The position numbers and the translations under genes were made by a program. From positions 7,103 through 71,102 of the IMG/VR virus record IMGVR_UViG_3300020048_000112: 64,000 nucleotides of DNA. The stretch is one strand, 5' to 3'. Below the pieces are notes generated by a model. It saw only the letters and a list, made by a program, of their open reading frames with translations, was not told the origin of the DNA and made no database searches. How positions within the stretch are numbered: position 1 is the stretch's first letter; the number at the start of each line of letters is the position of its first letter. Below, piece by piece: positions 6,076 through 60,519 of the stretch. The stretch comes from a virus. Taxonomy: Duplodnaviria; Caudoviricetes.

Positions 6076-6130
6076 AAATGCCCCTCAATCTATTGCTATG
6101 AGCTAGCTTGGATTGAGGGGCATTTTTTTT
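6075..6130. terminator. Bidirectional intrinsic terminator between the convergent replication and late blocks
   Basis: AAAATGCCCCTCAATC / GATTGAGGGGCATTTT 16-bp stem followed by a T run. Confidence 0.85.
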
Positions 6131-9100
6131 ATTTAGCCGCCATTGCAGCTTCAATAAATGGTTGAGCAGGATCTTCTAGCAACTGCACTATTATAGACTC
6201 ATCCATACTATCTATAAAGGCAGAGAAGGGATTCTCAATTAAATTGAGAGGATTCTTACTTAAGAATGGTACTGAGTTCCATATACTAGGTAAACCAAAA
6301 GCACCAGCCATAAGGAATGCTGTAATAGCCTCAAAAGGATGTTCCTTGATAGCATTAGCTATAGGCTTCAATATACGAAGGAAATACTTGCTGTACCATA
6401 TAAAACCCATAGCATTACCATACTCAATCATCTTATGAGTAGGTAAGTTGAAGTTTACAAATTCATGAATTACCTGAGCTACAGCTTTTTTATGAATGAA
6501 ATCAGCAATAGCTTTCTCAGTCTTATGCCCTGCAGCTATAGCCTCATCGTACTTGAATCGCTCTTTACCCCGGGAAGGATCAGTGTACCATTTATACATT
6601 GTGTACCTACTGACAAAATCCGTAGCCTTGACTGCATTATTAAGCATCTTGTACCCTGCAGTATCTTCAGCAAGAAAGATGACCTTACCACTCTTCAGGA
6701 CAGTCTTATTTAGCTTACTTGTTAATTTACTTACAGCAGTGTCCAGCTGTCCAGGATAAGGAGACTGTACGTTACTTGTCTCTATCTCATCAACGATCGA
6801 TTGTAATACACCTGCATCAACCAGAGGTGTTACAGGATTACGCGCAAGAGCATCATCCAACTCATTGACCTTAGTCTCAAGAACTTGAATACGAGAGTCT
6901 AGTGTTTGTTGGTTCAAAGCAGCAGTAGGTTTCATTCCTTTAAGAATCTTCAACTGTACCTTAGCTCTACCGAGTGCTGTAGCATCAGCTTCATAATGAA
7001 GCATACCCATAATAGAATCTTGATTCTGTTTAGCCATGAAGGTTGTAGGTACACCCATTGCTTTACAGTAGTTGGTATTACTCAAACTATTACCAGCAGT
7101 AACAGTGAGTGTCCTTACAATGACGTTATTCTTAGTAATCTTGGTAGTATCTTGAATAGCATCTTCAATGTCTTTCATACGCTGAATTTTCTTGTCCTTG
7201 AACAAGGCTTGAGCTGTATTAACAATCAGAGTCTCCAACACATTACGTTCAGCAGGGGTCTTACCAAAGGCTTCAGTAATAGAATACTTGGTTGAACCAA
7301 AAGCTAAATTAACTATATCCTTGGCAACAAACATCTTATTGTCACCCCAGATACGCTTAATATCCTGTTTAGCTGAAGCGGGTAGTTTATGATACATGGA
7401 CCTGAGTTCAGGATTCTTCGAGTACGGGCTTATCTCTACATATAGAGGAAACCTCTCTTTGTACTCTGCATCATACACATCCTTGAGAGCAGAAATACCC
7501 CGAGTGTTTATTTCTTTGGTTCCGACCTTATCAACTATCTGGCCGGCCATTGCTCCAAGGATATCAGCATAGTCCTTGTGTTGCTCAAGGATATCTTCCT
7601 TCATAGCCTCAGACATCTCATAGCGATACTCTACAATCTGACCCTGGTCATTGACCTTGGGTATCATATAATTTTTAGTAGGGGCATTACGATCAAATGG
7701 GGCCATCTTATGCTTAAACTGGTCATTCAATGCCATCTGCTTGGCCGCTATTAAACGATTATTATATTGAGCACCTCTAGTACCAGAAACACCCAGTTGC
7801 TCTTGTATATGGCGTGAGTTAGTTCCTTTGGCTCTATTTCCTGTAAATGAAAGTAAACCTGATAAGAGACTATTCACTGCACCTGTCTTAGCGGTGTAGA
7901 TATAGACATCTGCCTTCTCCGGATCATCAGGATCACGAGGAATAGCTACCTTAGATCGTGCATAACCCCTCTCTGCAAAGGCAGCTTCATCACTGAGGCT
8001 ACCATATTCAACATTGACCCTACTATTGAATATCTCCTTGATATAACCCTTACGTGTTTGAAGAGGATCATTAGCAAAGAGGATATCTTTAGCTTCTGTT
8101 TTTATCCTATTGGAAAAAGACATGACACCAGCTACAGCATTAGGATCTTCTTTGATCAATTTATGCAATGTAGCCCTGTGTGAGCTACGAACAAACGTAA
8201 GAGCATACATACTAGCGAGCCAATCAATAAGCATCTCTGCATGGTCTATATCAGCATCTTTGAGTGTACCCTGCATGTAGGTATTGTGTAGGCTTGCAAT
8301 TACCCGGGTATTAGGAAGAGTGACTTCCTCTAAACTACGCCCTGTAACCATCGTGTGTCCGAGTGATCTAGCCTGCTTCTGATAGTAGTGTCTTTGTTTG
8401 AAAAACTCAGGTTTAGCCCATATCTGACGCTCTATTTCATCTATAGCAGCTTTAAGGTTAGATTCACTTTCAAGCATAGAAGCTATCTCATCGATACTAA
8501 AATGATTATACAGAGTACCTAGATCAGCTTTAAGTAAGCTTTTAGTAATAGCCTCAGATTCTTTATCAGTTAACTCCCTAGACCATAAAGCCTTAAGGGT
8601 TTTAATTGTATGATCTACTTCGGCTTCACGAGGCTTATCTACCAATATCTTCTTGGTTTCCATGAGCATGTGGATAGACTCTAGCCGGTCAGTCTTACCG
8701 CGGATCTCGGAGACTAACTGTTGTACCAATCCGTATCGTTGTCCATCGATTAACCGACGCATATCTCTAAGCATCTGACCTACAGGGTTATTGGCCTGGG
8801 TCATTGTAGTGCGAAGAGTACGCAGGTTCTTAACAAGGTTCTTTTGAGGATATGCCTTAAAGAAAGCTGCAATTTTACTGTCGACATACTTAGCAAGCTT
8901 ACTTCTACCCGCATCAAATAAGTCAAATGAGGTAGCAATAATGCCTTTATGCTTACTCTCAACAGCCTTCAATTCTCGAGCCAAAGCCTCTAACTGAGCA
9001 GCTACATTAGCCTCACGTTTAATCGATCGGAAGTTGTTATTAATGATCGACATGATCTTATTAAAGATATTGACGAGGGTAGCTTGAATGCTATCTTTCT

Positions 9101-12100
9101 TAATACCAGCCCAGGTAGATTGGCTAAATATAGCTACTTTACCCTGGCTCAAAGGAATACCCGTAAGAGCTTTAATCATGTGCTCATTGGTTAAACCAAA
9201 GGCCATAAATTCATCTAAGCGATTAGAGTACTTCTTAGTATTTGTAAGTCCTGTAGCAGAATCTGTGCTTGATACTTCTCGTACAGGTGCATTGACAAAG
9301 ACATAATCAAAACGAGCTTTAGCATCAGCTATCTCTACAGGATCAGTAGACTTAGGATCACTCATAAAATGAGTGTGATTGAGCTTCTCCTTAGCTAACC
9401 GGTACAGAGCATCTACCTGTCTCTGGATATATGGGTTCATTTCAAACCCATAATGAATAACCGGGTGTAGCATCTCATGTGCATACACTTCACCAGTAGA
9501 CATCTTAATGCCTTGAGCCAAGACACCAGACACTCTACTTGAAACGAACACTGTGTCTCTACTCTTACCCGGGTAGACTTTACCCATGGTATCTGTATTA
9601 GCTTGAGTAGCCAGGTATAGATCAGCAGGGTTCATTACCTTACTTACTATGTCAAAGAGAATCCTTTGTAGGTGACTGTCATGAGCAGAGCTTACCTTAG
9701 CATCACCTTGATTCTTAATCAGGTTGTAAATATCAACAATATTGAGGTTATTAACCTCTTGTACAGGATCGTAGTCAGCAGGATTATCTGACATGCCGGC
9801 AGCTGCAGGAGAGCTTTTATGGGCCATACCGGCTGCAGTGGTAGGAGGTTTATTTTGTTCTTTGGCTCGGGCAAGATAATCTTTTATGTAGCCTTCAATG
9901 TGTTTATCATATTCTGCTTTACCCGCTACGATATCCGCAGCAGCTTGATCAGCTTGTGCTGCCATAGTTACATCAGCAATATTAATAAGGTTCTGTAGAC
10001 TAGCATCAGAAGTAAGATCATTACCTGTCTTATAACCAGGGCCACTCCAGTTGTATTGGTTAACCAACTGCACAGCATCAAGGATGATCTTCTTATTAGT
10101 CTTTGCTATGGTAGCATTAAACTTCATATCTTTAAGAACTTGGTCTATAGCAGTAAATGCTTTTCCTTCATAAGCAGTGATAATTTTAGTAACATTATCT
10201 TTATCTGTGATCTTAACCTCAGTAATACCCATGCGTTTGAATTCAGCTTCAATAGCCTGTTTCCATAATTCTTGAGTAACAGGATCCATCTCGTTATACA
10301 TATTTCTGAATGAAGAGTATGAGAAGTGTACTGACCGATACATTTCATCAAGGAGGTTATACTGAGCTACCTCATAGAAATGTTTATTTATAGTCTCATT
10401 CATTGCCTCAATGCTTGTGATCGGTCCAAAGAATCCATCATGAACATGAAGGATAGGGATATCTTCACCTTGCATACGATTGGATATTGAGCCATCTTGC
10501 ATCTGAGTACCAATGACTATGGTAGATACTCCAGGATTCTTTTTAAGCCACTGTTCGCGTAGATAACTTGTTTTGGTAGCTACGTTGTTTCCGCCCTTTT
10601 TACCATAGGATTGAGTTACAAAATTTTTACCATATATCCTTGAGTTATCATCAGCAGTAACATCCAATCGCCCACCTTTAAACGGTGTTTTGATTGAAGG
10701 AAACATATCCTTTAATGCTTCTGTTATTTTTGCATACTCTTCTATGGATAGATCAGCATACGTAGTAATATCGGTTTTTACACCAGTCTTCTTATTTGTT
10801 TCGTAAGTTTCATTGTAAACAGGAAGATTAAGCTCTTTCTTTCTAGCTTCAACTAACTGACTAAAGGCTACGTTATAGAGTGCTGTTACAATAGAGAAGC
10901 CCATATTAGCCGATTTACGCATATCCTTGATGTCACCATAGATAGCATCAATTGCTTCTGTAAGAGCTGCTCCGTGGCCTTCAGCAATGTTTTTAAATAT
11001 TGCTGCTTCAGTCATAGGAGGGATAAGTATGTTCAGCACTTTCTCCGGAATGAGCTTACCATCTGAACCAAGAAGATCAGCCCCTACAAAGAGCTTATGC
11101 TTATTGGGTGTATCGATCGGGAGATCGGCTAAAATATTTACATCAGCAACAAGATCAATAAGAGCTTGTCGGTCATTTGTTGCAGCTATGTCTTTTATCT
11201 TCTTATAGATATCCTTAATGAGATTGACTGTAAGACCCTTTACAATAGCACTATCACCTGATCCGTAGACAGTCTGCATCGTAGGATCTTTTGTAAGTTT
11301 ACGCATGAAACTGCTTACATAGCCGTCTTCGGTAGTAAGATTTCCCATGAGTCTTTCAGCAGCAGTAAACCTACTTAATTCTCTTTTAGTGTCACCATCT
11401 TTAGACTTGGGTAAGTAGTCAATAAGACCATTCTTATAAGTTCTTAATGCTGTATTCCAATGCATACCTACAGCCTGGTATGTATCCATTTGGCTATTAC
11501 TTTTAAGGTGTGTACCTACTTCATCAGCATTAGGATCAAGAGCAATACCCGCATTACGTAGAGTAGAAATAACACGAGCATTAATAGTCTTGATCATCTG
11601 TATTTGAGCAAGAGTAGGGCCATTAGCAATACCGTCCATCTCTGCAACAAGATCAGTAGTGAAAGATGTAGATTTACCGTCTGCAGCTTCTAAGGCATTC
11701 TCGTATCGAGCATACTCCACAAGACCTTTATATGTAGCTGCATTCTCTTTACCTGCTTTGACAGCTGCAATGACTGTAGCCTCGAATTCAGGGGTATAGA
11801 CACCATCCTTCTGAAATTGCCGTAGGACATCGATACCTGCGCGTATAGCGGGTGTTTTAAGCTTGGCTCGTACTTCAGCTATTACCTCTTTCGGAGTACC
11901 TATCTTGGCAACTTCTAAGCCAAAGGATAAACCTAAAGTAAGAAAGAAATTCTTCTCATGCTTGCCTTCTTTAGTACCGATCTTGAATGTTGATTCCCAT
12001 CCCTTCATGGCAAAGAGATAGCGGAGAAGCTTGCTTCCTTGAGGATTCAGCCGGCCTGCCTGATGTGTTCTAAGATTCTTTGCTATGAAAGCATTAATGT

Positions 12101-15100
12101 AGAATGGCGCTTTACGCTTTAAGGGTTGTGTATCTGCATCATTAGACCATTCTTCAATAGCTTCCAGCTCACGCTCAATACTACGATTAGAATCAGCAAC
12201 ATTGTCTCTCTCAGATATATGTTCAACAGAAGGATCTCCAGCACCGGCAATAGCCATCTGACCTTCTTTGGAGAACACACCAAAGATATCCATCGAGTGA
12301 GTAGCACCATGCCAGGGCTTGTTTATACCGGCTATAAGGTTAGCCGTCTGTTCTGCAGTAGCATGATTGGTTGTCTTCTTGATCTTAGCAAGAAAGTCTT
12401 TGGTTATTTTTACTGGCTCCCAACTATAGTCTCTTTCAGACACTTGACCGGAGAACATTCTCTCCCAGGTATGTTTAGATCTACTGAATAATTTCTTAAA
12501 CTCTACAACCTTATCAACTGCTTGAGGTTCACCCGTCTTTTTATTAGGTATAGGATTAGAGGCTACCTTATAGAAATTGATTACAGGTTTACCTTTATGA
12601 CCATACTTATCATTTACAAAGAATACCCCCGGCTCACTTAAGTCATGTTTAGGTATATTCGTAAACTTGTTTAGAGTATTTGCTTTAAGAGCAGCAATAC
12701 CAAATAATTTTGATCTATTATCAACTGAAACTTCAATATCTCCTGGATTAACATTCTCATTTACAGTAAGCCCTGTATAGATAGAAGTGACCTCTACCAG
12801 TTTCATTTGCTGTAAGTTAGACACAATCATTTGTCCTAAAGATAACTGCATCATCTGCTCAAAATTAGCAGGAGCATTCTTTTTAGGAGCAATATTGAGT
12901 AGCCTGTATGCCTCTTTACCTATATCCTCTACAATAAAATTCTGAGGAGAACCCACATCTTTAAGTAGCTGAATAGCATCAGGTGCAAGATCAATTTCTT
13001 TCTTGAAACCAAGCATTCTACCTATAGATTCACGGTCATTAACGAGTGTCTCTGTGCTACGAGTAGCAAGCCATTTATATGCTACTGCTGAGAGCACACC
13101 AACAGTATTATCAATACTTGTATCGATGTACTGGAAAGGATCTTTGAAACGAAAGGCTTGATTAGCAATAGGCCTGAAGGTTTCTTCTTTAAACGTCTTA
13201 CTAAAATCACTATGGAAATCAGACATTGAACCAAGAAGATTAACCACATTCCCATCAAGCTTATACTTACCGTTGAACACTCGGGATAACTCACCAAGGC
13301 TATTAGCCTTTACAACTGCTTTAAGCGTGCTAAACAGATTAGGTACTATCTGGAGCAGGTTAAGTTTAAAGGTACTCTTAGCCGCAAATAGGGCTTTAAG
13401 TAGATTGATTGTGCTATACGACTTGGGATCTATATTCTTTGGATCAACACCTTCCTCCGGAGTAAGCATCTGCTGTGCGGTAGTAACCGTCTTAGGATCA
13501 GCTATGAGAGTCTCCAGCGGAGTAGGAAGAATAGGGTTCTCTGCTATCGTATCGAAGATAGATGTATCTTCTATATCCTCAGTAGAGAGTTCCTCATTAA
13601 GATTATCTATAGGGGGTTCTTCTCGTGTTTCATCATGCTCAAGTTGATTGGGTGTTCCATTAAAGTCTTCCTGAAAATCTTCACCTGTAAAATCACTGTC
13701 ACTGTGCTCAGGTATATTGGGATCTATATCATCTGTCCGTTCAAAGGATTGAGTATTATCCTCTACAGGAGTTATACCTTTTGCTATATCGATGGCTATA
13801 CTAAGAGACTCTGTTAATAGGGATATGTCCTTAGCATCAATACGTTTAAGTAAAGCATTGAATATCTCTCTGATAGCCTCAACAATCGACTGCTTTCCAA
13901 ATGGTTTAAGTTTATCCAGTTCAACCTGTAGTGCAGGACTGCTTATTACTTCAGCTAAAAATTCCTTTTCGTTAGTAAAACCGTACGTCTCACCTAAAGC
14001 AGGATTCTGCTTTAGAGCGTGTTCCATTACAGCTTTAGTTTTACTAAGTAATACAGGATATTTACTAAGGTTTCCTAAAGTAATAGCGTGAACATACTCA
14101 TGTAAAACTACTTTCAATGGATATATATTTTCCCTGGTATAGCCCGTAGCTAAAGATATGGTATTAGAGGCACTATTTGTTATACCTAGTGGCTTCTCTA
14201 CAACACCTGTTTTAGGTAAATTTTCAGTAAAATTAATAGTTAAGGGTTTAAATAATATACCTGCTTTAACCAGATCATTGAATATATCCTCAAACCATTT
14301 ACTATGATCTACAGTACCAACCGGTTTACCGAAGCGTTCAAACATCAACTCCTGGTACTCTTTTGATAAGGCAATCAATTCACTAAGGCTATTAACCTTT
14401 ACTGAGGTATTACCATTAGAATCGGTAATAGCATTAGTGTCTTTACTTACCCACTTTAACAGCCCTTGCCGCCCTTGCCTTTGCCCTTCTTGGTCTTTTT
14501 CATTAGGATTCTCCTGTTGGGGTTGTTGTTTTTCTTTTGGTTCAACTACTTTGTCACTCACCGTTTCTTCTTTTTGAGTCACAACCGGTTTTGTATCTAT
14601 TTTACGAGACTCTACTTTAGGTATAACAGGTGCAGGTTTCTGCTCCATGGTACCAACAGGTTTTTCTATCGTAGTGGATTCATTTGGTTTATTTTCAGTT
14701 TTAGGGGGTGGTACCGGTTTACTCTCAGGAGCATTAAGAATCTTCTCATGAATCCTGGCTGCATGATTGTAATTCACATTAAGGAGATTACTGATCTCAA
14801 TACGTATAGCTTGAATAGCTTCAGGGGTAGCCTTATTGTTTTGAACCAAGGATAAAACACCCTTAGCTTTATCTCCTGTAGGATCATCGATCGATTCATC
14901 TTTGAATACAGACTGTACAGCCCCGGGAGAGACAGCTTTAGTTACAGGCGTAGTCTTGGGTGGAGCTACAGGAGCATTCACTGTAGAGGCCTTAGCAGGC
15001 TTCTTACCATGCATTGCAAAGAGGGCATTCATAGCACCGGAGGATTTGGCTAGAAGCTCTGCTTCTGCTTCCATAGTATCGAGTGCTCGTAGCCACTTAG

Positions 15101-17216
15101 GAGCTGTTGGGTTAGTAACAGCATAAGGTCTACCCTTCTTGAATTCACTGGCATTAAGCATATCCAGATTAGCTTGATCTTCTGGAGATACCTGAGTACC
15201 TGCTGCCTTAGCATCAGTGATATTGCGGAGTGTCTGAGCCTTTGTAGCTTGTCTGCCGGCGAAGTTATTAAGACTATCAAGTTCTGCTTGAGCTGTCTTC
15301 TCATCACCTTTATTTAATGCTGTAGAAATAGCCTGATGGTAATAGTTGATACCTTTGAATCCTGGCACACCCTGAGTAATATCATTATGCACTACATCTG
15401 TATCTTTACCTGATACTGTTTCAAGACGATCTTTAATCGATTGAAACTCCTGTACCTGTTTTACAAAGGAGAGTGTCTCAGGGGTAGTATGCGGATTGGA
15501 CTTAATAGCCTCAAGTTGTGAACCAAAAGCAACAACATCAGATCCCCCATTATGAGAGAGGATGTTCTTTACAGCGGCAGTGATAGCTTCCGGATCTGTA
15601 CCCTGTGACACCTCATCGAGCTTATCTATGAGTTCTTCAGGAGTAAGCTTGGTTTGGTGCATGGAAGCTATGGTAGCGTCCATCTCAGTAAGAGTGGCCT
15701 TAGCATTTTCTAGGGTCTTGTGGATTGTTTTAAGCTGTGCCGCCTCATCTTCAGTGAGTGGGCCTATCTTCTGCTTCTCTTGAAGCTCTGCCCCTAATTG
15801 ACCCTTAGTAGCCACATCATCGGAGTAATCGCTGTATATAGACAGAGCTTCTTGAAGCTTGGTCTTATCAGTGTCACCGGTAGCAACAGCCATTTCCTTG
15901 AGTGCATTTACAGCTACAGAAGGGTTATATGCCTCATTTTTCGGATCAGAATACTTAGAGACATCTCCGGCCTCAACAGCCTCCTTTACCTTGGTATCAA
16001 ACTCAGGAGCAGCAGTGCCTTGTGCAACTGTCTCCGCAGCTTTTTGTTCTTCAGACTTAGGAGTAATTACATCAGCAATTACATCTTTAGCTTTAGATAG
16101 GGCTGATTTGATCTCAGGTGACTTAGTACCGTATGCATAGATATCTGCAGGTGCAGTGACAGCAGACATACTGATAGCCCCTAGAGCTTCGCCTGCAAGC
16201 TCACCAAGGTCAAGCTTATTATCAGCAGCAAGTTGACCGGCACCTTCACTCACAACCTCAGAACCTATTTCTGCAGTAAAAGCAGTTGCTTTATTAGCAA
16301 GTACAGTTGATATTGGAACATCTTTTAAATTTTTAAGTATTTCTGCATTTAGTAATTCAGTAGGGGCATCTGGCCCAAGCTTCATGGTAGCTTTTTTAAT
16401 AGCTGAAGCTCGATGTAGAGTTGCAATTTTACCCACACCTACACCCATGAGAGCATCTGTGCCGGCAGTACCTGCAGCCTTTAGATTAGCCCTGGATATA
16501 GCTTCATCTTTGAATTCAGGTTCAGCGAGTAGAGTAGCAATATTTGCTTCTGTAACAGGAACCCCTCTATTAGTGAGTTCTTCTATAACGATCTCACTAA
16601 GCTTTGCACCTGCTTCTGCAGCAAAGCCGCCACTGAATGCGCCCACTACACCACCTATAGGACCAGCCGGTGTTGCAGTTCCTGCAACAGCCCCTACGAT
16701 AGAAGGTATAGAGAAGCCTGCAGATTGAGCACCAAGCATAGCTACACCCTTAGGGTTAGTAACTACTTCCTTGGCAGAATCCCATAAAGCAGAGCCAACA
16801 GAACTGGCTATCTCAGTGGGTGTATACGCTTTATTATATTCTTCACTTAGGCGGGCTAGTACTTTTTGAGTATCTGATAGCTCAGGTGGAGTAAATTGAG
16901 AACTTGCTCTTTCATGCCCTCTTGCGATTATACCTGGGGTATTTTCATCGATATTACCCGTAATAGTGTCATCGGCTAAACGTACCGAATCTACAGTAGC
17001 ATTGACACTTTCCTTGGCAAGCTGACCTATGTTATTGAGTAAACTTCGATTAGGGCCATTAAACTGATTAATTACAGCTTCGCCACCAGGGACTGAAGTT
17101 TTAAACACATCCTGGGTTCTCTGCTGATCTTCAGCAGACATAGCCTTATAGTGGTCATCATTAGTGATCGCTTGCCATGCTTTATTACTTTTAGCTATAT
17201 CTTCAGGAGTAGGCAT
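6129..17216 (-). CDS. Virion-encapsidated RNA polymerase (N4 gp50-like vRNAP), 3695 aa
   Basis: Size and position. Single-subunit RNAP motifs EMDGIANGP (A), RKLTKDPTMQTVYGSG (B), LHVHDGFF (C); zincin-like HEYVH and HEMLH motifs; nearly cysteine-free. Confidence 0.95.
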   Translation of the reverse strand: MPTPEDIAKSNKAWQAITNDDHYKAMSAEDQQRTQDVFKTSVPGGEAVINQFNGPNRSLLNNIGQLAKESVNATVDSVRLADDTITGNIDENTPGIIARGHERASSQFTPPELSDTQKVLARLSEEYNKAYTPTEIASSVGSALWDSAKEVVTNPKGVAMLGAQSAGFSIPSIVGAVAGTATPAGPIGGVVGAFSGGFAAEAGAKLSEIVIEELTNRGVPVTEANIATLLAEPEFKDEAISRANLKAAGTAGTDALMGVGVGKIATLHRASAIKKATMKLGPDAPTELLNAEILKNLKDVPISTVLANKATAFTAEIGSEVVSEGAGQLAADNKLDLGELAGEALGAISMSAVTAPADIYAYGTKSPEIKSALSKAKDVIADVITPKSEEQKAAETVAQGTAAPEFDTKVKEAVEAGDVSKYSDPKNEAYNPSVAVNALKEMAVATGDTDKTKLQEALSIYSDYSDDVATKGQLGAELQEKQKIGPLTEDEAAQLKTIHKTLENAKATLTEMDATIASMHQTKLTPEELIDKLDEVSQGTDPEAITAAVKNILSHNGGSDVVAFGSQLEAIKSNPHTTPETLSFVKQVQEFQSIKDRLETVSGKDTDVVHNDITQGVPGFKGINYYHQAISTALNKGDEKTAQAELDSLNNFAGRQATKAQTLRNITDAKAAGTQVSPEDQANLDMLNASEFKKGRPYAVTNPTAPKWLRALDTMEAEAELLAKSSGAMNALFAMHGKKPAKASTVNAPVAPPKTTPVTKAVSPGAVQSVFKDESIDDPTGDKAKGVLSLVQNNKATPEAIQAIRIEISNLLNVNYNHAARIHEKILNAPESKPVPPPKTENKPNESTTIEKPVGTMEQKPAPVIPKVESRKIDTKPVVTQKEETVSDKVVEPKEKQQPQQENPNEKDQEGQRQGRQGLLKWVSKDTNAITDSNGNTSVKVNSLSELIALSKEYQELMFERFGKPVGTVDHSKWFEDIFNDLVKAGILFKPLTINFTENLPKTGVVEKPLGITNSASNTISLATGYTRENIYPLKVVLHEYVHAITLGNLSKYPVLLSKTKAVMEHALKQNPALGETYGFTNEKEFLAEVISSPALQVELDKLKPFGKQSIVEAIREIFNALLKRIDAKDISLLTESLSIAIDIAKGITPVEDNTQSFERTDDIDPNIPEHSDSDFTGEDFQEDFNGTPNQLEHDETREEPPIDNLNEELSTEDIEDTSIFDTIAENPILPTPLETLIADPKTVTTAQQMLTPEEGVDPKNIDPKSYSTINLLKALFAAKSTFKLNLLQIVPNLFSTLKAVVKANSLGELSRVFNGKYKLDGNVVNLLGSMSDFHSDFSKTFKEETFRPIANQAFRFKDPFQYIDTSIDNTVGVLSAVAYKWLATRSTETLVNDRESIGRMLGFKKEIDLAPDAIQLLKDVGSPQNFIVEDIGKEAYRLLNIAPKKNAPANFEQMMQLSLGQMIVSNLQQMKLVEVTSIYTGLTVNENVNPGDIEVSVDNRSKLFGIAALKANTLNKFTNIPKHDLSEPGVFFVNDKYGHKGKPVINFYKVASNPIPNKKTGEPQAVDKVVEFKKLFSRSKHTWERMFSGQVSERDYSWEPVKITKDFLAKIKKTTNHATAEQTANLIAGINKPWHGATHSMDIFGVFSKEGQMAIAGAGDPSVEHISERDNVADSNRSIERELEAIEEWSNDADTQPLKRKAPFYINAFIAKNLRTHQAGRLNPQGSKLLRYLFAMKGWESTFKIGTKEGKHEKNFFLTLGLSFGLEVAKIGTPKEVIAEVRAKLKTPAIRAGIDVLRQFQKDGVYTPEFEATVIAAVKAGKENAATYKGLVEYARYENALEAADGKSTSFTTDLVAEMDGIANGPTLAQIQMIKTINARVISTLRNAGIALDPNADEVGTHLKSNSQMDTYQAVGMHWNTALRTYKNGLIDYLPKSKDGDTKRELSRFTAAERLMGNLTTEDGYVSSFMRKLTKDPTMQTVYGSGDSAIVKGLTVNLIKDIYKKIKDIAATNDRQALIDLVADVNILADLPIDTPNKHKLFVGADLLGSDGKLIPEKVLNILIPPMTEAAIFKNIAEGHGAALTEAIDAIYGDIKDMRKSANMGFSIVTALYNVAFSQLVEARKKELNLPVYNETYETNKKTGVKTDITTYADLSIEEYAKITEALKDMFPSIKTPFKGGRLDVTADDNSRIYGKNFVTQSYGKKGGNNVATKTSYLREQWLKKNPGVSTIVIGTQMQDGSISNRMQGEDIPILHVHDGFFGPITSIEAMNETINKHFYEVAQYNLLDEMYRSVHFSYSSFRNMYNEMDPVTQELWKQAIEAEFKRMGITEVKITDKDNVTKIITAYEGKAFTAIDQVLKDMKFNATIAKTNKKIILDAVQLVNQYNWSGPGYKTGNDLTSDASLQNLINIADVTMAAQADQAAADIVAGKAEYDKHIEGYIKDYLARAKEQNKPPTTAAGMAHKSSPAAAGMSDNPADYDPVQEVNNLNIVDIYNLIKNQGDAKVSSAHDSHLQRILFDIVSKVMNPADLYLATQANTDTMGKVYPGKSRDTVFVSSRVSGVLAQGIKMSTGEVYAHEMLHPVIHYGFEMNPYIQRQVDALYRLAKEKLNHTHFMSDPKSTDPVEIADAKARFDYVFVNAPVREVSSTDSATGLTNTKKYSNRLDEFMAFGLTNEHMIKALTGIPLSQGKVAIFSQSTWAGIKKDSIQATLVNIFNKIMSIINNNFRSIKREANVAAQLEALARELKAVESKHKGIIATSFDLFDAGRSKLAKYVDSKIAAFFKAYPQKNLVKNLRTLRTTMTQANNPVGQMLRDMRRLIDGQRYGLVQQLVSEIRGKTDRLESIHMLMETKKILVDKPREAEVDHTIKTLKALWSRELTDKESEAITKSLLKADLGTLYNHFSIDEIASMLESESNLKAAIDEIERQIWAKPEFFKQRHYYQKQARSLGHTMVTGRSLEEVTLPNTRVIASLHNTYMQGTLKDADIDHAEMLIDWLASMYALTFVRSSHRATLHKLIKEDPNAVAGVMSFSNRIKTEAKDILFANDPLQTRKGYIKEIFNSRVNVEYGSLSDEAAFAERGYARSKVAIPRDPDDPEKADVYIYTAKTGAVNSLLSGLLSFTGNRAKGTNSRHIQEQLGVSGTRGAQYNNRLIAAKQMALNDQFKHKMAPFDRNAPTKNYMIPKVNDQGQIVEYRYEMSEAMKEDILEQHKDYADILGAMAGQIVDKVGTKEINTRGISALKDVYDAEYKERFPLYVEISPYSKNPELRSMYHKLPASAKQDIKRIWGDNKMFVAKDIVNLAFGSTKYSITEAFGKTPAERNVLETLIVNTAQALFKDKKIQRMKDIEDAIQDTTKITKNNVIVRTLTVTAGNSLSNTNYCKAMGVPTTFMAKQNQDSIMGMLHYEADATALGRAKVQLKILKGMKPTAALNQQTLDSRIQVLETKVNELDDALARNPVTPLVDAGVLQSIVDEIETSNVQSPYPGQLDTAVSKLTSKLNKTVLKSGKVIFLAEDTAGYKMLNNAVKATDFVSRYTMYKWYTDPSRGKERFKYDEAIAAGHKTEKAIADFIHKKAVAQVIHEFVNFNLPTHKMIEYGNAMGFIWYSKYFLRILKPIANAIKEHPFEAITAFLMAGAFGLPSIWNSVPFLSKNPLNLIENPFSAFIDSMDESIIVQLLEDPAQPFIEAAMAAK

Positions 17217-30966: not shown

Positions 30967-31275
30967 TCAGTTCTTCAGGGCTTCCAGTTTAGGGGGCATA
31001 CGTATCTCCAACCCCATACTTTTTTTGATGTCATTGACACTTGAAACAACGTAATCAAGCCTTTCCTGCGTAACTGCTGCTGTAGTGCTTAAATTCTTAA
31101 TATCCTGCCGGCTTACTTCGATGGTAGTAGCCATACCACCTAGTCCAACAAACACAAAACAGGCTACAGCGATAATCCATTTAACCTGAAGGTTAAGTCT
31201 GTAGCAAACCAGACAGTTTTTATCACAGTCACCTATATCTGCCACCCTTCGTACTACGTGTCTTTGCTCACTCAT
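30967..31275 (-). CDS. Single-TM coiled-coil protein (possible lysis or membrane component)
   Basis: Hydrophobic WIIAVACFVFVGLGGMA followed by a coiled-coil. Confidence 0.5.
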   Translation of the reverse strand: MSEQRHVVRRVADIGDCDKNCLVCYRLNLQVKWIIAVACFVFVGLGGMATTIEVSRQDIKNLSTTAAVTQERLDYVVSSVNDIKKSMGLEIRMPPKLEALKN

Positions 31276-31661
31276 TTGTAGTTACTCCCTATACCTAAGA
31301 AGGCACCTAAGCGTACACCCCATAATCCCAGTAAACATTTGAACTCTTGGTCTTGTTCAATGTACTTTTTGATCAGGAAATAAATCATGTCGGCTTCTGC
31401 GCGTTCTTTAGCGTTTTTGCATAAACCACATAAGTAGTCATGCACGCATGAAGCTTTTATATTTTTATAGAATTTGGGGGCAATGAATCGAGCGAGAGGG
31501 GTATTAGGAGAGCTGGCGCCATTCCATACAAACCCTGATGGAACGATTGTACCGTTGAAGTTATAAGCACGAGTTAGCACCAAATATTCACTATTGCCCT
31601 GATGCATACAAATGACATTGTCATAGATATAGACAGTACCTTTATGTGTAAATTCGCCCAT
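31272..31661 (-). CDS. DUF1353-like phage protein
   Basis: TIVPSGFVWNGASSP...ASCVHDYLC...RAEADMIY...GVRLG pattern. Confidence 0.7.
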   Translation of the reverse strand: MGEFTHKGTVYIYDNVICMHQGNSEYLVLTRAYNFNGTIVPSGFVWNGASSPNTPLARFIAPKFYKNIKASCVHDYLCGLCKNAKERAEADMIYFLIKKYIEQDQEFKCLLGLWGVRLGAFLGIGSNYK

Positions 31662-31692: not shown

Positions 31693-33123
31693 CTAGGCGG
31701 CCAGCTCTTTATATCGCTCAATAAATATTTCTTTGGTGGGTCGCTGGATACCCTCCATGGCAATGATTGCTTCACCGAACAGCAATTGGAATACAGTCTC
31801 GAAAAAGATCATGTGATACTGGAATTCATTATTGCAAGTATGATAGAAAGCTACAGCATCTTGCGCCAGGCATCCACCACGACAGATTGGTAACACAGGG
31901 CAAGACAGACACTCAGGTCGACTATGCCAATGGGTAAATCCAATTACACCAAGGTTTGCTTCTTCAAAATTGTCGATAGTACCAATTACTCTAGGGGTTG
32001 AATGACAAGCAAGCACATCACCTTTAAGGCTGACACTCACATTGAATGGGCTGTCCATAGAACACTTCTGCTGGATGTTGTCATCAAGGTGAAATTTATC
32101 AGAGGTGATAAATTGCATCATACTCTGGACCTTGTGCTTCATGACTGAAACCTCATTGATCCTACCGTTGACTAAATGCCCTACGATTTCCCGGCGCAGC
32201 TCTAAATAGTCCTCCTGGGTGAACATTGTTTTAGCATCAAACTGGGCTTCGTCTTCAATAAGGACGATACCTTCAAAACCCACCTGTACTTTGGCTGGGT
32301 CACTAAACTTGCTCTTGATAAATGTGATAATTCCCGGCAGGTCATACCGACCTTTGGTAATGACAGCATTAAAATACAAAGGCTCAGAAGCATTATCAGC
32401 GTAGTACCTAAGAGCTTCCAGGGTATCTGATCCATCAGCTAAGGGATCTCCGGACCGATAGTCCAGCTGGCCAGGACCGTCATGTGACACTGCCAAAACG
32501 ATCTTGTGCTTGATAAACCAATCTATCTTTTCCTTGGTTACCAAAGAACCATTGGAAAGAACCGTGATCCTTGCATTGGGAAACTCATTTCGGAAATACT
32601 CACCCAAAAGTTGCAGAGTTTCCCAATAAACCAATGGCTCTCCACCCCACAATTCGATGCGGATCGGTTCTTTTCGATCAGTAGTGCAGAACACAGGAAA
32701 TTTTTCAATAAACCTGCGAGCGTCTTCAAGATTAGCATGGGGGTCGAGACTTTTATGCGCAGTCTGCTTGCAATATTGGCAGGTGAAATTACACGCCAAG
32801 CCCATTTGAATTTTGATTGTGCACAGATTCTTACTTTTTGTAGCTTGTGTGAGGCTGTACTTACTACGGCTATAGCATTCCCGGGCAGATGCTTCATGTT
32901 CGGCAAGATTATCACCGCGTTCATTACTTGCTGCTGCGTCCCTGTTTCTGCAGCTCTCTTCTGCTTCAGCCTTGGCTTTGTCCATGGCTTTGATTTCTTC
33001 CTCGGACAAAGAGACATCAACATCAATCTTTTCTCCATCTTCAGTGAAAAAATTGCAGCTCTTGTTATCCCACAGACGAGTGTTAAATGCCCCGTCAGCT
33101 GTTACCGAATGAATAGTTATCAT
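31693..33123 (-). CDS. Radical SAM enzyme with SPASM domain (peptide/protein maturase-like), ~476 aa
   Basis: CNFTCQYC (CxxxCxxC), WGGEPL, SPASM C-x13-G-x4-C (CSMDSPFNVSVSLKGDVLAC) and CLSCPVLPICRGGC-x11-C; AAGGT RBS before ATG 33123 (track start 33225). Confidence 0.92.
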   Translation of the reverse strand: MITIHSVTADGAFNTRLWDNKSCNFFTEDGEKIDVDVSLSEEEIKAMDKAKAEAEESCRNRDAAASNERGDNLAEHEASARECYSRSKYSLTQATKSKNLCTIKIQMGLACNFTCQYCKQTAHKSLDPHANLEDARRFIEKFPVFCTTDRKEPIRIELWGGEPLVYWETLQLLGEYFRNEFPNARITVLSNGSLVTKEKIDWFIKHKIVLAVSHDGPGQLDYRSGDPLADGSDTLEALRYYADNASEPLYFNAVITKGRYDLPGIITFIKSKFSDPAKVQVGFEGIVLIEDEAQFDAKTMFTQEDYLELRREIVGHLVNGRINEVSVMKHKVQSMMQFITSDKFHLDDNIQQKCSMDSPFNVSVSLKGDVLACHSTPRVIGTIDNFEEANLGVIGFTHWHSRPECLSCPVLPICRGGCLAQDAVAFYHTCNNEFQYHMIFFETVFQLLFGEAIIAMEGIQRPTKEIFIERYKELAA

Positions 33124-33136
33124 TGAATACCTTGTG

Positions 33137-33664
33137 TTAGAAATAGCAGTTACCATCACTGCAATTAGCGGTACAGTTGCAGTACCCGCTGTTATAGTTA
33201 CAATCAGATTGGAGCAGACAAGCACAATTACATCTCAAACCATCGCCTGTATCCCAGCTGCAATTACCCATATTAGGCTGATTGGCAGGGCATTCACAGT
33301 TCTGAGTACAGTTGCATTGGCAATTACAGTTTTGATATATCTTGCGCAAACGGACTGCCCTATCACCAGTTTTTTCAAGTGCCCACTCTTGGCCATACCA
33401 ATACTTGCGCGTGCCGGTTGCACTACCTTGAGTGGTGGTAGATGCAAACTCTGCTTGAGTAGCAGTAATTCCGGAATATGCAGGGGCATTCACGATCATT
33501 TCCCAATGGGTTCCCGTAGTGGGTATAACTCCAGAGAAATTATTCTGAGTAGCCTGGTAAGCGCAGTTGTTGTAGCGAACAATATCTTTGAGGCGGTAGG
33601 TTATGTTATTGTCATAGAACCCCATGAAACTCCCACCAGCAGTGAACATCGATATTTTACTCAT
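33137..33664 (-). CDS. Tail-associated protein: CBM5/12-like N-terminal module plus Cys/Asn-rich C-terminus (candidate rSAM substrate)
   Basis: YDNNITYRLKDIVRYNNCAYQATQNNFSGVIPTTGTHW module; last 63 aa contain 15 Cys. Confidence 0.75.
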   Translation of the reverse strand: MSKISMFTAGGSFMGFYDNNITYRLKDIVRYNNCAYQATQNNFSGVIPTTGTHWEMIVNAPAYSGITATQAEFASTTTQGSATGTRKYWYGQEWALEKTGDRAVRLRKIYQNCNCQCNCTQNCECPANQPNMGNCSWDTGDGLRCNCACLLQSDCNYNSGYCNCTANCSDGNCYF

Positions 33665-33671
33665 CGTTGCC

Positions 33672-34160
33672 TCACTGCATGTAGGTTACTGCAAGAATTT
33701 CTGATTTACGCCCTGGTGTAATATAGCCGGCGCTCTCAAAGTAATTCAAAGCAGTGAGCACAGTAGGGTGACTCAAATTGATCCGGGTTGTCCCATCCAT
33801 ATAACGCAGGAAAGCATTGATCAGTCGCTTAGATTCAACCGACAAATTTGTATCATCCTGGAAATTATAAAGGGCCACCATCTCAGCGAAGGTGAGCAGG
33901 CGAAGAAAATCGTCTTTATCCAGAGTGGTACTGGTGGAAGTAACTTGGTTTGCCATTCGCTGGGGGGACCAGAAAATACCATCATGAAAAAGAAATCCGG
34001 GAAAGATGTTTGGTGCGTTTTGCTGCCCAGTATTAGAGGCTACTACCAAGAATCCCGGGTGGGTTGCCTTAATGGTGGCCAAAGCATCTTGTTCAGGTTT
34101 GTCTGCATACACAACTAGATTGGTTGTCTTGTCGATAAAGTGATAAAGGTTCATAATCAT
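33672..34160 (-). CDS. Tail-fibre assembly/chaperone-like protein
   Basis: C-terminal LDKDDFLRLLTFAEMVAL...INLSHPTVLTALNYFESAGYITPGRKSEIL resembles small proteins found next to tail fibres; overlaps the upstream gene by 4 nt. Confidence 0.5.
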   Translation of the reverse strand: MIMNLYHFIDKTTNLVVYADKPEQDALATIKATHPGFLVVASNTGQQNAPNIFPGFLFHDGIFWSPQRMANQVTSTSTTLDKDDFLRLLTFAEMVALYNFQDDTNLSVESKRLINAFLRYMDGTTRINLSHPTVLTALNYFESAGYITPGRKSEILAVTYMQ

Positions 34161-34447
34161 CTCGGTTTGTTAAGGGTTATTGTAGAACCATCAGAAGTCA
34201 GGGTAAACGATGATGGTGTGACACCAGATCCTGATGTACTGACAGCGATTGATGGTACCGTGGTGAATAGGCTGAAATACATTGCATTGGTGGGGACGTT
34301 ACCCACTGATTTTTTAATGCATATGTATATGGAATTATTATACGTTACCAAATTATTCGGGAAATACGTTGTGCCCGCTGCATATGTTTCCCGATACTGC
34401 AGCCTACCTTGTTCGTAATCAGAGATTAAACTCATATTGTCACCCAC
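34157..34447 (-). CDS. Small tail-associated protein with CBM5/12-like module
   Basis: YAAGTTYFPNNLVTYNNSIYICIKKSVGNVPT. Confidence 0.55.
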   Translation of the reverse strand: MGDNMSLISDYEQGRLQYRETYAAGTTYFPNNLVTYNNSIYICIKKSVGNVPTNAMYFSLFTTVPSIAVSTSGSGVTPSSFTLTSDGSTITLNKPR

Positions 34448-35991
34448 CCGTAAGCTGCGCCTGAATAAAACAATTTCACAGTTATCCCAAGGATATCAAT
34501 GGTTAAGTTCTCTTCTAAACCATTAATTCTTGAGCCATTCCTATCAATGACACATGTGTTTACACTGGAAAAATTTACTACGGAAAGAGTTGCCCCAATC
34601 GTTGGGCCTAATGGGAGGGTCAGAGTTGCTGACGCAGCAAGAATATGCAGATAGTTTTCTGTTGCACCAGCACTGGCATTTAAAACCACTGCTCCAATAA
34701 GAGCATTGGATGCCATGGTGCTGATTAAGTGCAACCCACTATCCGTCCTTGCCCGACTAAAAGTGGTTAGATTGGTTACAATCCAGCCATCAGCTACACT
34801 GGCATAGGTGAAGATTACTCTCTGGCTGGGTGTATTTAGTAACAGGTCACTGGCCATGACTTCGCCGTGAACCACTAAGCCCGTGGTTACGACCGTGCAG
34901 GGGTGCACACCGAAAGTATTCTTTAAATCAGCAATGGCTACTGTATCCCCAATTTCCGGATTAGCATGGAAGGTTACTATTCTATTTCCACTGGCAGTAT
35001 TTAATAGAATACCTATGCCGGCTTGAGTCGTGACATCGATTGCAGACTCAATCCAAGACATTCCTCCGCCGCTACCGCCAGATCCGACAGGAACCCAGCC
35101 TGTACCGTTGAATCCCTCAAAGGATACTTCGTCCAAGTTGAAGCGCATATGCCCAGCACTTGGCACCAGATCTCTTTGTAAAGTAGTACCCGCAGGTATG
35201 ATCGCAGATCCATCATAGCCAGTTTTCAGCACTGCATTTTCAGCAACATATGCTGTATTGGCAATCTGAATGGTGTTCGATCCCTCTTCTGCAGTGGGCG
35301 CCGTAGGAATACCTGTAAGCACAACACTGTTTGTACCAATAGGGGCAGAAAGTGAAATAATCCAGTCATCAAAAGTACCAATACCATTAACAAGGTCGAC
35401 AACAAAAATGAGTTCACCGGTTACGGTGTCATAGCTTTCAATGATACCATGCACCCAATTAGCCGTAGGAGTGCTACCAGCAGCAATAACAATGGACATG
35501 CCAGGTATAAGGTTCTTACCTGCCTGAATGCCCAGTGTATGGGTACCTGCGCTGATTTCCATCACGGTGTTGCTGCTTGCGTTAGTGCTGGGCAAACCGA
35601 CCAATGTGGCTACACTTATGGAAGCCTCATAAGCGTAAAGCTCTGCAGCGTCTGCAGCGGTAAGCGCTCTTTCTTTAGCATTTACTGATGTAAGAGAATA
35701 TCCCTGAGCCTGATTCCTGTAGGTCTGGGACAAAGTAGCATTCTGCGAAGATTCATTTGCTCGGGCAGTAGCAGTTACTACACTGTTTGAAGCAGATGTC
35801 GCAAAAGCACTTGCGGATGTTTTGTAACCAAATGCGTCATTTACCCAGCCGGCCACATCAGCGTGCATATTGTTGACTGACGCGACGTTATTACTGGTCT
35901 GGTCCACTGCTAGGTCTAACGCAGCTTTGCCATCAGTAACGGCGTCAAGCAATGATGTAGTCGCACTAGTAAGATCGTCTATTGTTGCCAT
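34432..35991 (-). CDS. Tail fibre protein (519 aa)
   Basis: Ala/Ser/Thr-rich shaft; LTGIPTAPTA...NTIQIANTAYV fibre repeat; AGTTLQR...RFNLDEVSFEGFNGTGW; two C-terminal beta modules ending YSGAAYGWV. Confidence 0.85.
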   Translation of the reverse strand: MATIDDLTSATTSLLDAVTDGKAALDLAVDQTSNNVASVNNMHADVAGWVNDAFGYKTSASAFATSASNSVVTATARANESSQNATLSQTYRNQAQGYSLTSVNAKERALTAADAAELYAYEASISVATLVGLPSTNASSNTVMEISAGTHTLGIQAGKNLIPGMSIVIAAGSTPTANWVHGIIESYDTVTGELIFVVDLVNGIGTFDDWIISLSAPIGTNSVVLTGIPTAPTAEEGSNTIQIANTAYVAENAVLKTGYDGSAIIPAGTTLQRDLVPSAGHMRFNLDEVSFEGFNGTGWVPVGSGGSGGGMSWIESAIDVTTQAGIGILLNTASGNRIVTFHANPEIGDTVAIADLKNTFGVHPCTVVTTGLVVHGEVMASDLLLNTPSQRVIFTYASVADGWIVTNLTTFSRARTDSGLHLISTMASNALIGAVVLNASAGATENYLHILAASATLTLPLGPTIGATLSVVNFSSVNTCVIDRNGSRINGLEENLTIDILGITVKLFYSGAAYGWVTI

Positions 35992-60432: not shown

Positions 60433-60504
60433 TGCTGCGTGGTTGTAATGGTTAACACTGCCCCTTTGCTAAGGGAGATATAGGTTCGAGTCCTGTCACA
60501 GCAT
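60433..60504 (+). tRNA. Degenerate tRNA-like gene (anticodon GCT if the loop is TTGCTAA)
   Basis: Acceptor TGCTGCG/CACAGCA, D arm GTTG..TGG..TAAC, T arm ATAGG-TTCGAGT-CCTGT; mismatched stems, very short variable region, no encoded CCA. Confidence 0.45.
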
Positions 60505-60519
60505 CTGAAGGAGAAACAC

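Follow-up and report, generated by a model that had tools for sequence, protein, structure and literature searches.

The stretch of DNA analyzed here (the window) comprises 64,000 nucleotides, positions 7,103 to 71,102, of IMG/VR virus record IMGVR_UViG_3300020048_000112, a 71-kb viral contig rated 96% complete. Five minus-strand genes of the window are nearly contiguous, with successive gaps of -16, -4, +7 and +13 bp. They encode, in this order, a tail-fibre protein of 519 amino acids (aa), proteins of 96, 162 and 175 aa, and a radical S-adenosylmethionine (SAM) enzyme with a SPASM region. A sequence-only reading of the window, made by a model, had described this packing and proposed that the enzyme modifies the 175-aa protein, which ends in a tail rich in Cys and Asn. 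The packing was confirmed from the coordinates: the enzyme gene (31693 to 33123, minus strand) begins 13 bp past the gene for the 175-aa candidate substrate (33137 to 33664, minus strand).

The open reading frame (ORF) of the enzyme, taken mechanically, extends to a GTG at 33225, within the 175-aa gene. In each of the 35 homologues the start corresponds to the ATG at 33123 (MITIHS...), and an AAGG lies 8 nt upstream of this codon; therefore, the enzyme was taken as 476 aa long. In an alignment of 36 sequences, down to 25% identity, the CX3CX2C motif of the radical SAM [4Fe-4S] cluster (C111, C115 and C118; 32770 to 32793, minus strand) and a GGEP motif at residues 160–163 were invariant. The same was true of G368 and of the seven Cys residues of the SPASM region (C354, C373, C405, C408, C414, C418 and C430; 31834 to 32064, minus strand), which are spaced C-x13-G-x4-C ... 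C-x2-C-x5-C-x3-C ... C. The SPASM pattern for two auxiliary [4Fe-4S] clusters is CX9-15GX4C, CX2CX5CX3C and a last C. Thus, the motifs listed in the sequence-only reading were all recovered. Among the profile searches which that reading had proposed, the radical SAM model PF04055 scored 36.4 bits (cut-off, 29.5) and the SPASM model TIGR04085 scored 34.2 bits over residues 354–424 (cut-off, 27), whereas the Pfam SPASM model gave no match at E 0.1. In the PHROG collection the enzyme fell into phrog_1802 (1.9e-44), a family with only a generic name, and compared with its phrog_1802 relatives the enzyme of this window's clade carries an additional helical insert of 45 residues.

The closest curated relatives of the enzyme were PapB, QhpD, CcpM, HxsB and the nif11 and SCIFF maturases, all of them at scores well below family level. 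It scored 61 bits against the PapB family (NF047865; cut-off, 340) and 58.3 bits against QhpD (TIGR03906; cut-off, 453), and neither QhpC nor an amine dehydrogenase is encoded nearby. The score against the anaerobic sulfatase-maturating enzyme (anSME) family was 39.5 bits (TIGR03942; cut-off, 349), and the 175-aa protein contains no Cys/Ser-x-Pro/Ala-x-Arg, the motif that anSME targets. A sequence search of the Protein Data Bank (PDB) returned TigE (1e-27), CteB (2e-24) and anSME (2e-22). The AlphaFold2 model of the enzyme had a predicted local distance difference test (pLDDT) score of 92.6, and its best fold matches were, in order, CteB, ChlB, anSME, TigE and SuiB. With the radical SAM and SPASM profiles above their cut-offs, and with maturases and anSME as its nearest curated and solved relatives, the protein is a SPASM radical SAM enzyme of the peptide- or protein-maturase kind, in agreement with the earlier assignment.

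The 175-aa protein consists of a small fibre-type beta module, a linker, a conserved strand and the Cys/Asn-rich tail. The module (residues 10–59; 33488 to 33637, minus strand) is of the CBM5/12 or tail-fibre type; it matched CBM_5_12 at 3.6e-4, below the cut-off, and tail-fibre PHROGs weakly. The protein contains 16 Cys residues, 15 of which lie within the last 63 residues (33140 to 33328, minus strand). The tail opens with NCNCQCNC, followed by 56 further residues with 11 further fixed Cys. The count of the earlier reading, 15 Cys, eight NC dipeptides and three NxxC motifs (NCQC, NCEC and NCAC) in the 63-aa end, was reproduced, and a fourth NxxC (NCNC) begins one residue before that end. AlphaFold2 gave pLDDT values of 72–87 for residues 11–60 and values below 50 elsewhere; the Cys tail (29–42) was predicted to be unstructured. 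When all six frames of the window were screened for ORFs of at least 40 aa, no ORF other than that of the 175-aa protein had a CxCxCxC run, and its 15 Cys in 63 residues were the maximum of a window whose six-frame Cys frequency is 2.7%. The Cys tail is therefore not a product of chance.

Ten orthologues of the 175-aa protein, 54–79% identical to it, kept all 15 tail Cys residues and most of the tail Asn residues. They are 170–176 aa long, except for one (P0070) whose 234 aa are probably an artefact. In P0070 the reading frame passes from the Cys tail directly into the N-terminal sequence of the enzyme, which is probably due to a frameshift or an assembly error; a real fusion is also possible. 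Because this record reads both genes as one, it indicates that the two are kept adjacent. Furthermore, several orthologues of the 175-aa protein agree with enzyme orthologues in the size of the longest contig that carries them. Taken with the invariant Cys residues and the read-through record, this suggests that the gene pair and its order are conserved in this clade. A search for longer proteins into which the tail of the 175-aa protein is fused found none, which is weak evidence. A tblastn search of phage records with the 175-aa protein and a megablast search of the same records with the 4.3-kb region gave no match.

We surveyed gene neighbourhoods, as the sequence-only reading had suggested, in viral and bacterial collections and in both directions. 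A run was defined as at least four alternating Cys (CxCxCxC), runs were counted on six-frame ORFs rather than on gene calls, and the opposite strand served as the control for chance. Scans of viral contigs with single sequences retrieved no enzyme, and one weak N-terminal match to the 175-aa protein. A profile scan based on the alignment found relatives of the enzyme in at least 589 viral stretches, and 80 loci were kept. A same-strand ORF with a CxCxCxC run was present at 51 of these 80 loci, compared with 4 of 80 on the opposite strand; at many of the viral loci lacking a run, the sequence available upstream is shorter than 2 kb. The ORFs with runs were nearly always located 0.2–3.5 kb upstream of the enzyme, and the run stood at the extreme end of the ORF or before a Hint domain. 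Relatives of the enzyme were also encoded in 363 stretches of bacterial genomes. Among the bacterial (prophage) loci with at least 3.5 kb of upstream sequence, 43 of 58 had a run, whereas the opposite strand had one at 4 of 80. Starting from the tail instead, we scanned viral contigs for DNA coding for NCNCNCNC. When such a run was in frame and C-terminal and at least 4.5 kb of downstream sequence was available, a same-strand enzyme followed in 28 of 31 cases, and the three exceptions were short, apparently non-coding ORFs. Internal runs, including those in giant-virus records, were accompanied by the enzyme in only 1 of 17 cases.

These results indicated that the enzyme family and C-terminal CxC runs are coupled in both directions, in the viral as well as the bacterial collection. 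The window shows the same pairing, namely a phrog_1802-type enzyme downstream, on the same strand, of a fibre-type ORF with an alternating Cys run in its tail. The two-way co-occurrence makes the Cys/Asn-rich neighbour by far the best candidate substrate, which supports that part of the proposal made from the sequence. Since the pairing recurs in hundreds of phages and prophages, chemical modification of a fibre component by this phage is very probable.

Proteins whose ends bear tails of this type range in length from 60 to over 700 aa. At most other loci they form the extreme C-terminus of proteins of 200–700 aa with collagen, CBM5/12 or T4 gp36-like parts; one carrier (L023), for example, is a fibre with collagen repeats and CBM5/12. 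The N-terminal beta module of the 175-aa protein is shared with its 96-aa neighbour and with very long fibre ORFs at two other loci (L004 and L032). A strand-like, often basic segment usually precedes the Cys run (VRLRKIYQ in this window), and the residue between the cysteines is mostly Asn, followed by Asp and Ala. Viewed against these carriers, the 175-aa protein shows an elaborated form of the tail, placed on a separate small protein.

In Achromobacter phage JWF the carrier is gp028, a fibre with similarity to Shufflon_N that is T4 gp36-like according to the record note and is encoded two genes before the enzyme. Its run, NCNCDCNCNCSC, is followed directly by a Hint domain (Hom_end_hint, 47.5 bits; cut-off, 32.1). 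The same arrangement, a Cys run leading directly into an intein/Hedgehog-type Hint domain whose first Cys is the last of the run, was seen at four loci (L001:3676-5127, which is JWF gp028; L014:5551-6978; L036:6482-7312; and L061:6201-7004). Since cleavage by a Hint domain occurs at the domain's own first Cys, the mature fibre would again end in the Cys run. Cleavage may possibly leave the C-terminus of the run as an activated thioester.

At seven loci (L035, L042, L046, L049, L053, L054 and L063) the enzyme family stood beside cysteine repeats of other kinds, among them CTYCTHCTYC and five-residue NCTT(I/V) units, approximately 2–3.5 kb upstream, and not beside alternating runs, so that more than one type of tail may be served by the family. 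At four loci (L093, L144, L183 and L199), two to four radical SAM paralogues, and not a single one, adjoined the gene of a small protein that ends in ...DDYST(A/N)CNCNCNC or has a longer end rich in Cys.

The genes located between the tail gene and the enzyme at other loci belong to several unrelated families. A 2-oxoglutarate (2OG)-Fe(II) oxygenase (PF13759) occupied this position at 14 loci (L005:7264-7872, L086:4612-5295 and 12 more), and an unnamed family of about 320 aa did so at 28 loci; neither is present in the window. The conserved core of the system is the enzyme and a Cys-tailed protein. Two neighbours in the window were considered as further conserved partners and rejected. The 162-aa gene has no family and no similarity to JWF gp029, and it recurred, among about 280 loci, only in a close relative (L098). 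The DUF1353 gene downstream of the enzyme was found only in the closest relative and was absent from the other enzyme loci.

The remaining genes of the run and its surroundings were as follows. The 519-aa tail-fibre protein (34432 to 35991, minus strand), the first gene of the run, contains only 2 Cys residues; it matched PHROG tail and tail-fibre families (phrog_9383, 7.6e-13; phrog_2631, 8.6e-8; and others) and no Pfam family. The 96-aa protein (34157 to 34447, minus strand) is a small fibre-type, CBM5/12-like module with 1 Cys and no Cys tail. It matched CBM_5_12 at 4.6e-4, below the cut-off, and tail-fibre phrog_5073 at 2.2e-6, and it is paralogous to the 175-aa protein's N-terminal part (BLASTP E 8e-4). 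The 162-aa protein (33672 to 34160, minus strand) matched no Pfam, PHROG or NCBIfam family. In the Atlas it was placed only in clusters of viral hypothetical proteins, with a faint lead to tail-fibre assembly proteins (0.81), which is all that was found for the label "chaperone-like" given to this gene in the sequence-only reading. A DUF1353 or tail-assembly-chaperone-like protein of 129 aa (31272 to 31661, minus strand; PF07087, 5.5e-9; phrog_1158, 7.4e-14) is encoded 31 bp past the enzyme and probably belongs to the same operon. Its gene is overlapped by 4 bp by that of a 102-aa protein with a hydrophobic stretch (30967 to 31275, minus strand; phrog_1863), which lies at the end of the operon and may be a membrane or lysis-related protein. 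Elsewhere in the window, a tRNA-like gene was found at 60433 to 60505 (plus strand), for which ARAGORN left a two-base anticodon call undetermined (tRNA-???).

The enzyme and tail of the window resemble several characterized systems. CteB/CteA (SCIFF), PapB/PapA (freyrasin) and NxxcB/NxxcA likewise combine a SPASM enzyme bearing CX3CX2C and the seven-Cys motif with an adjacent gene for a Cys-rich substrate; CteB was the best structural match and PapB the best curated family match of the window enzyme. PapB, QhpD, SCIFF and CteB enzymes form links from Cys to carbon. Two features of these systems recur in the NCxC units of the tail: the NxxC spacing seen in NxxcA and the pairing of Cys with Asp that PapB uses. 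The window differs from these systems in that its candidate substrate, 175 aa long and partly folded into a fibre-type module, is not a short leader-core peptide, and in that its context is a phage tail-fibre operon with no protease, no exporter and no detected recognition element (RRE) of systems for peptides made on the ribosome and modified after translation (RiPPs). Pfam and PHROG searches of the operon identified neither a protease nor an exporter, and of the features of a RiPP system, neither an RRE nor a short leader-core precursor released by a protease was found here.

Whole proteins as targets of three-cluster SPASM enzymes encoded alongside them are known from QhpD/QhpC and CrpC/CrpA (PMC13692751). 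QhpD was the second-best curated match of the window enzyme, although the similarity of both QhpD and CrpC is at the superfamily level only. Unlike the window protein, QhpC is an enzyme subunit and CrpA is an archaeal protein whose role is not known, and neither is viral or structural; the target motifs of CrpA (CAGM, CAVD and CPLV) also differ from alternating (N/D/A)C runs. The anSME structures (PDB 4k36-4k39) have the SPASM fold, are as similar to the window enzyme as CteB is, and represent an enzyme that acts on protein Cys; the JWF homologue was formerly annotated as anSME. The window, however, has no sulfatase and no Cys-x-Pro/Ala-x-Arg motif, and the conserved partner is a multi-Cys tail. 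The nearest systems in cultured phages are the phrog_1802 members of Achromobacter phage JWF (gp030) and Ralstonia phage RSP15 (ORF045), which are 29–33% identical to the window enzyme. In both phages the enzyme gene is located in the tail-fibre module, and JWF gp028 bears an NC/DC run, whereas the window clade has the 45-residue insert and carries its elaborate 15-Cys tail on a separate small protein.

We read the enzyme class and motifs, the packing of the operon, the conserved tail and the genomic coupling in both directions as pointing to a three-cluster maturase that modifies the Cys/Asn tail of the fibre-associated 175-aa protein, most likely by forming thioethers from Cys to Asn or Asp; we put the probability of this reading at roughly 55%. 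The small fibre-type protein would be produced together with the tail fibre and modified post-translationally in the host cytoplasm. The enzyme would abstract a hydrogen from the side-chain carbon of a residue between or beside the cysteines (mostly Asn, but also Asp, Gln, Glu or Ala), and the sulfur of a Cys would then bond to it, so that small thioether rings of the ranthionine type form a ladder. Every NCxC unit is at the same time an NxxC unit. The fibre-associated protein would thereby gain a compact knob that is insensitive to redox conditions and resistant to proteases. Asn and Asp are acceptor residues of the Cys-linking enzymes NxxcB, PapB and QhpD. Thioethers to Asn or Asp are the most likely product because CteB and the majority of the closest curated families act on Cys-rich peptides, because the spacers of the tail are known acceptors, and because thioethers are installed by SPASM enzymes on whole proteins in QhpD/QhpC and CrpC/CrpA (PMC13692751). 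A bolder proposal, which we hold only tentatively, is that phages of many lineages have a radical SAM enzyme of their own with which they weld the C-terminal ends of the fibres that bind the host, or of small proteins attached to these fibres, by non-reducible thioethers, possibly from one chain of the fibre trimer to another. In the N4-like phage of this window, the elaborated version with 15 Cys would then be borne by a separate tip protein of 175 aa.

Several observations weigh against thioether formation on a virion protein. The enzyme is far under the cut-off of every curated family, and the reaction type is therefore not readable from homology; anSME, for which the reaction with Cys is an oxidation and not a cross-link, is roughly as near a relative as CteB. 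A PqqD-type RRE, the last of the profiles named in the sequence-only reading, was not detected in the enzyme at E 0.1, although a divergent RRE is possible, and the N-terminal 90 residues were modelled by AlphaFold2 as beta hairpins followed by two long helices. The 15-Cys pattern of the tail is elaborate and fixed, not a plain (NC)n, and would also suit a metal-binding or disulfide knot. The earlier reading had regarded enzymes lacking a Cys-rich neighbour as telling against it, and the strict CxCxCxC run was not seen at some of the enzyme loci (15 of 58 in bacteria). No virion proteome was found for this phage or a relative.

The enzyme might act on the Cys tail by other means than cross-linking through thioethers, for example by oxidizing Cys as anSME does (to formylglycine or a dehydro residue), by epimerization or by forming carbon-carbon links, or it might prepare a tail that mainly binds metal in the fibre, as a CxC cluster like that of metallothionein. 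We consider this unlikely, but it deserves weight, since anSME is among the three closest solved relatives and none of the cut-offs of the curated thioether families was reached. CxC and CC are typical metal ligands, and the 2OG-Fe(II) oxygenase found between tail gene and enzyme at other loci hints at further chemistry; for CrpA, too, the authors suspect that the product binds metal (PMC13692751). Against this, the tail lacks the target motif of anSME and the best curated matches are mostly Cys-linking or Cys-rich-peptide maturases. The residues between its cysteines are, moreover, mostly Asn and Asp, the acceptors of the Cys-linking enzymes (PMC13692751).

The 175-aa protein might also be modified and yet not be part of the virion, either as a RiPP-like product that is released at lysis or acts within the cell, against competitors or host functions, or as an assembly factor that departs. 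We infer its presence in the virion; the protein is small, has its own start codon and a predicted unstructured tail resembling a RiPP core, and no longer protein with its tail was found. However, its gene lies within the fibre operon, among overlapping or nearly abutting genes, and its N-terminal module is of the fibre type found in long fibre proteins. At most other loci the tails are the C-terminus of fibres of 200–700 aa and hence part of the fibre itself, and neither a signal peptide nor machinery for leader cleavage adjoins the gene, so that a role apart from the particle seems quite improbable to us. Least of all do we expect the adjacency of the two genes to be incidental, with the true substrate being the 519-aa fibre, a protein of the host or a small molecule such as a nucleotide, and the Cys tail being a plain zinc or disulfide domain. 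Radical SAM genes with other roles exist in phages, such as those of Campylobacter, but the association (28/31 vs 1/17; 51/80 vs 4/80; 43/58 vs 4/80) extends across unrelated phage types in two independent collections, and no other neighbour is conserved with the enzyme. Modification of the Cys/Asn tail by thioether formation on a fibre-associated protein is thus the reading that we prefer.

The phage itself was assigned from its genes to the N4-like podoviruses because its large terminase shares 65–67% identity with the terminases of N4-like phages that infect Enterobacter, Pectobacterium and Acinetobacter, and because a 3695-aa ORF (6129 to 17216, minus strand) has the size of an N4-like virion RNA polymerase. 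Its host is most likely a gammaproteobacterium, to judge by these relatives. Enterobacter phage SABI is represented by an unannotated record, and its gene arrangement differs from that of the window. N4-like phages were absent among the matches of the enzyme in the phage collection; its relatives were encoded by Achromobacter and Ralstonia phages and by prophages whose hosts were Bradyrhizobium, Variovorax, Limnohabitans and Rhodobacteraceae. The prophage carriers of the family are mostly aerobic Alpha- and Betaproteobacteria. The sequence-only reading had linked the oxygen-sensitive Fe-S chemistry to an anaerobic host. We rejected this link: the terminase relatives infect facultative or aerobic Gammaproteobacteria, the cultured carriers of the enzyme infect Achromobacter and Ralstonia, its prophage carriers are mostly aerobic, and the 2OG-Fe(II) oxygenase present in 14 of the cassettes depends on oxygen.

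Receptor-binding fibres set the host range of a phage and the survival of its particles, and the known steps of fibre maturation involve folding chaperones, self-cleaving domains and metal ions. We found no paper in which a radical SAM enzyme of a phage is described together with Cys-tailed fibres as its partners, in a full-text search that left most subscription journals outside its scope, so that absence from the literature is not proven. The finding would be a case in which a fibre protein of a phage undergoes SPASM maturation of the RiPP type. If this is true, a cross-link installed by an enzyme through RiPP-type radical chemistry would be a new step of virion assembly, and it would lengthen the short list of whole proteins, QhpC and CrpA, that are modified by SPASM enzymes. 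If fibre tips are indeed welded in this way, the receptor-binding end would be hardened covalently by an enzyme, and virions are not known to be modified in such a manner. The pairing is common, with at least 589 viral and 363 bacterial genome stretches encoding the enzyme family, and involves two genes here; fibres of this kind that are expressed without the enzyme may be immature.

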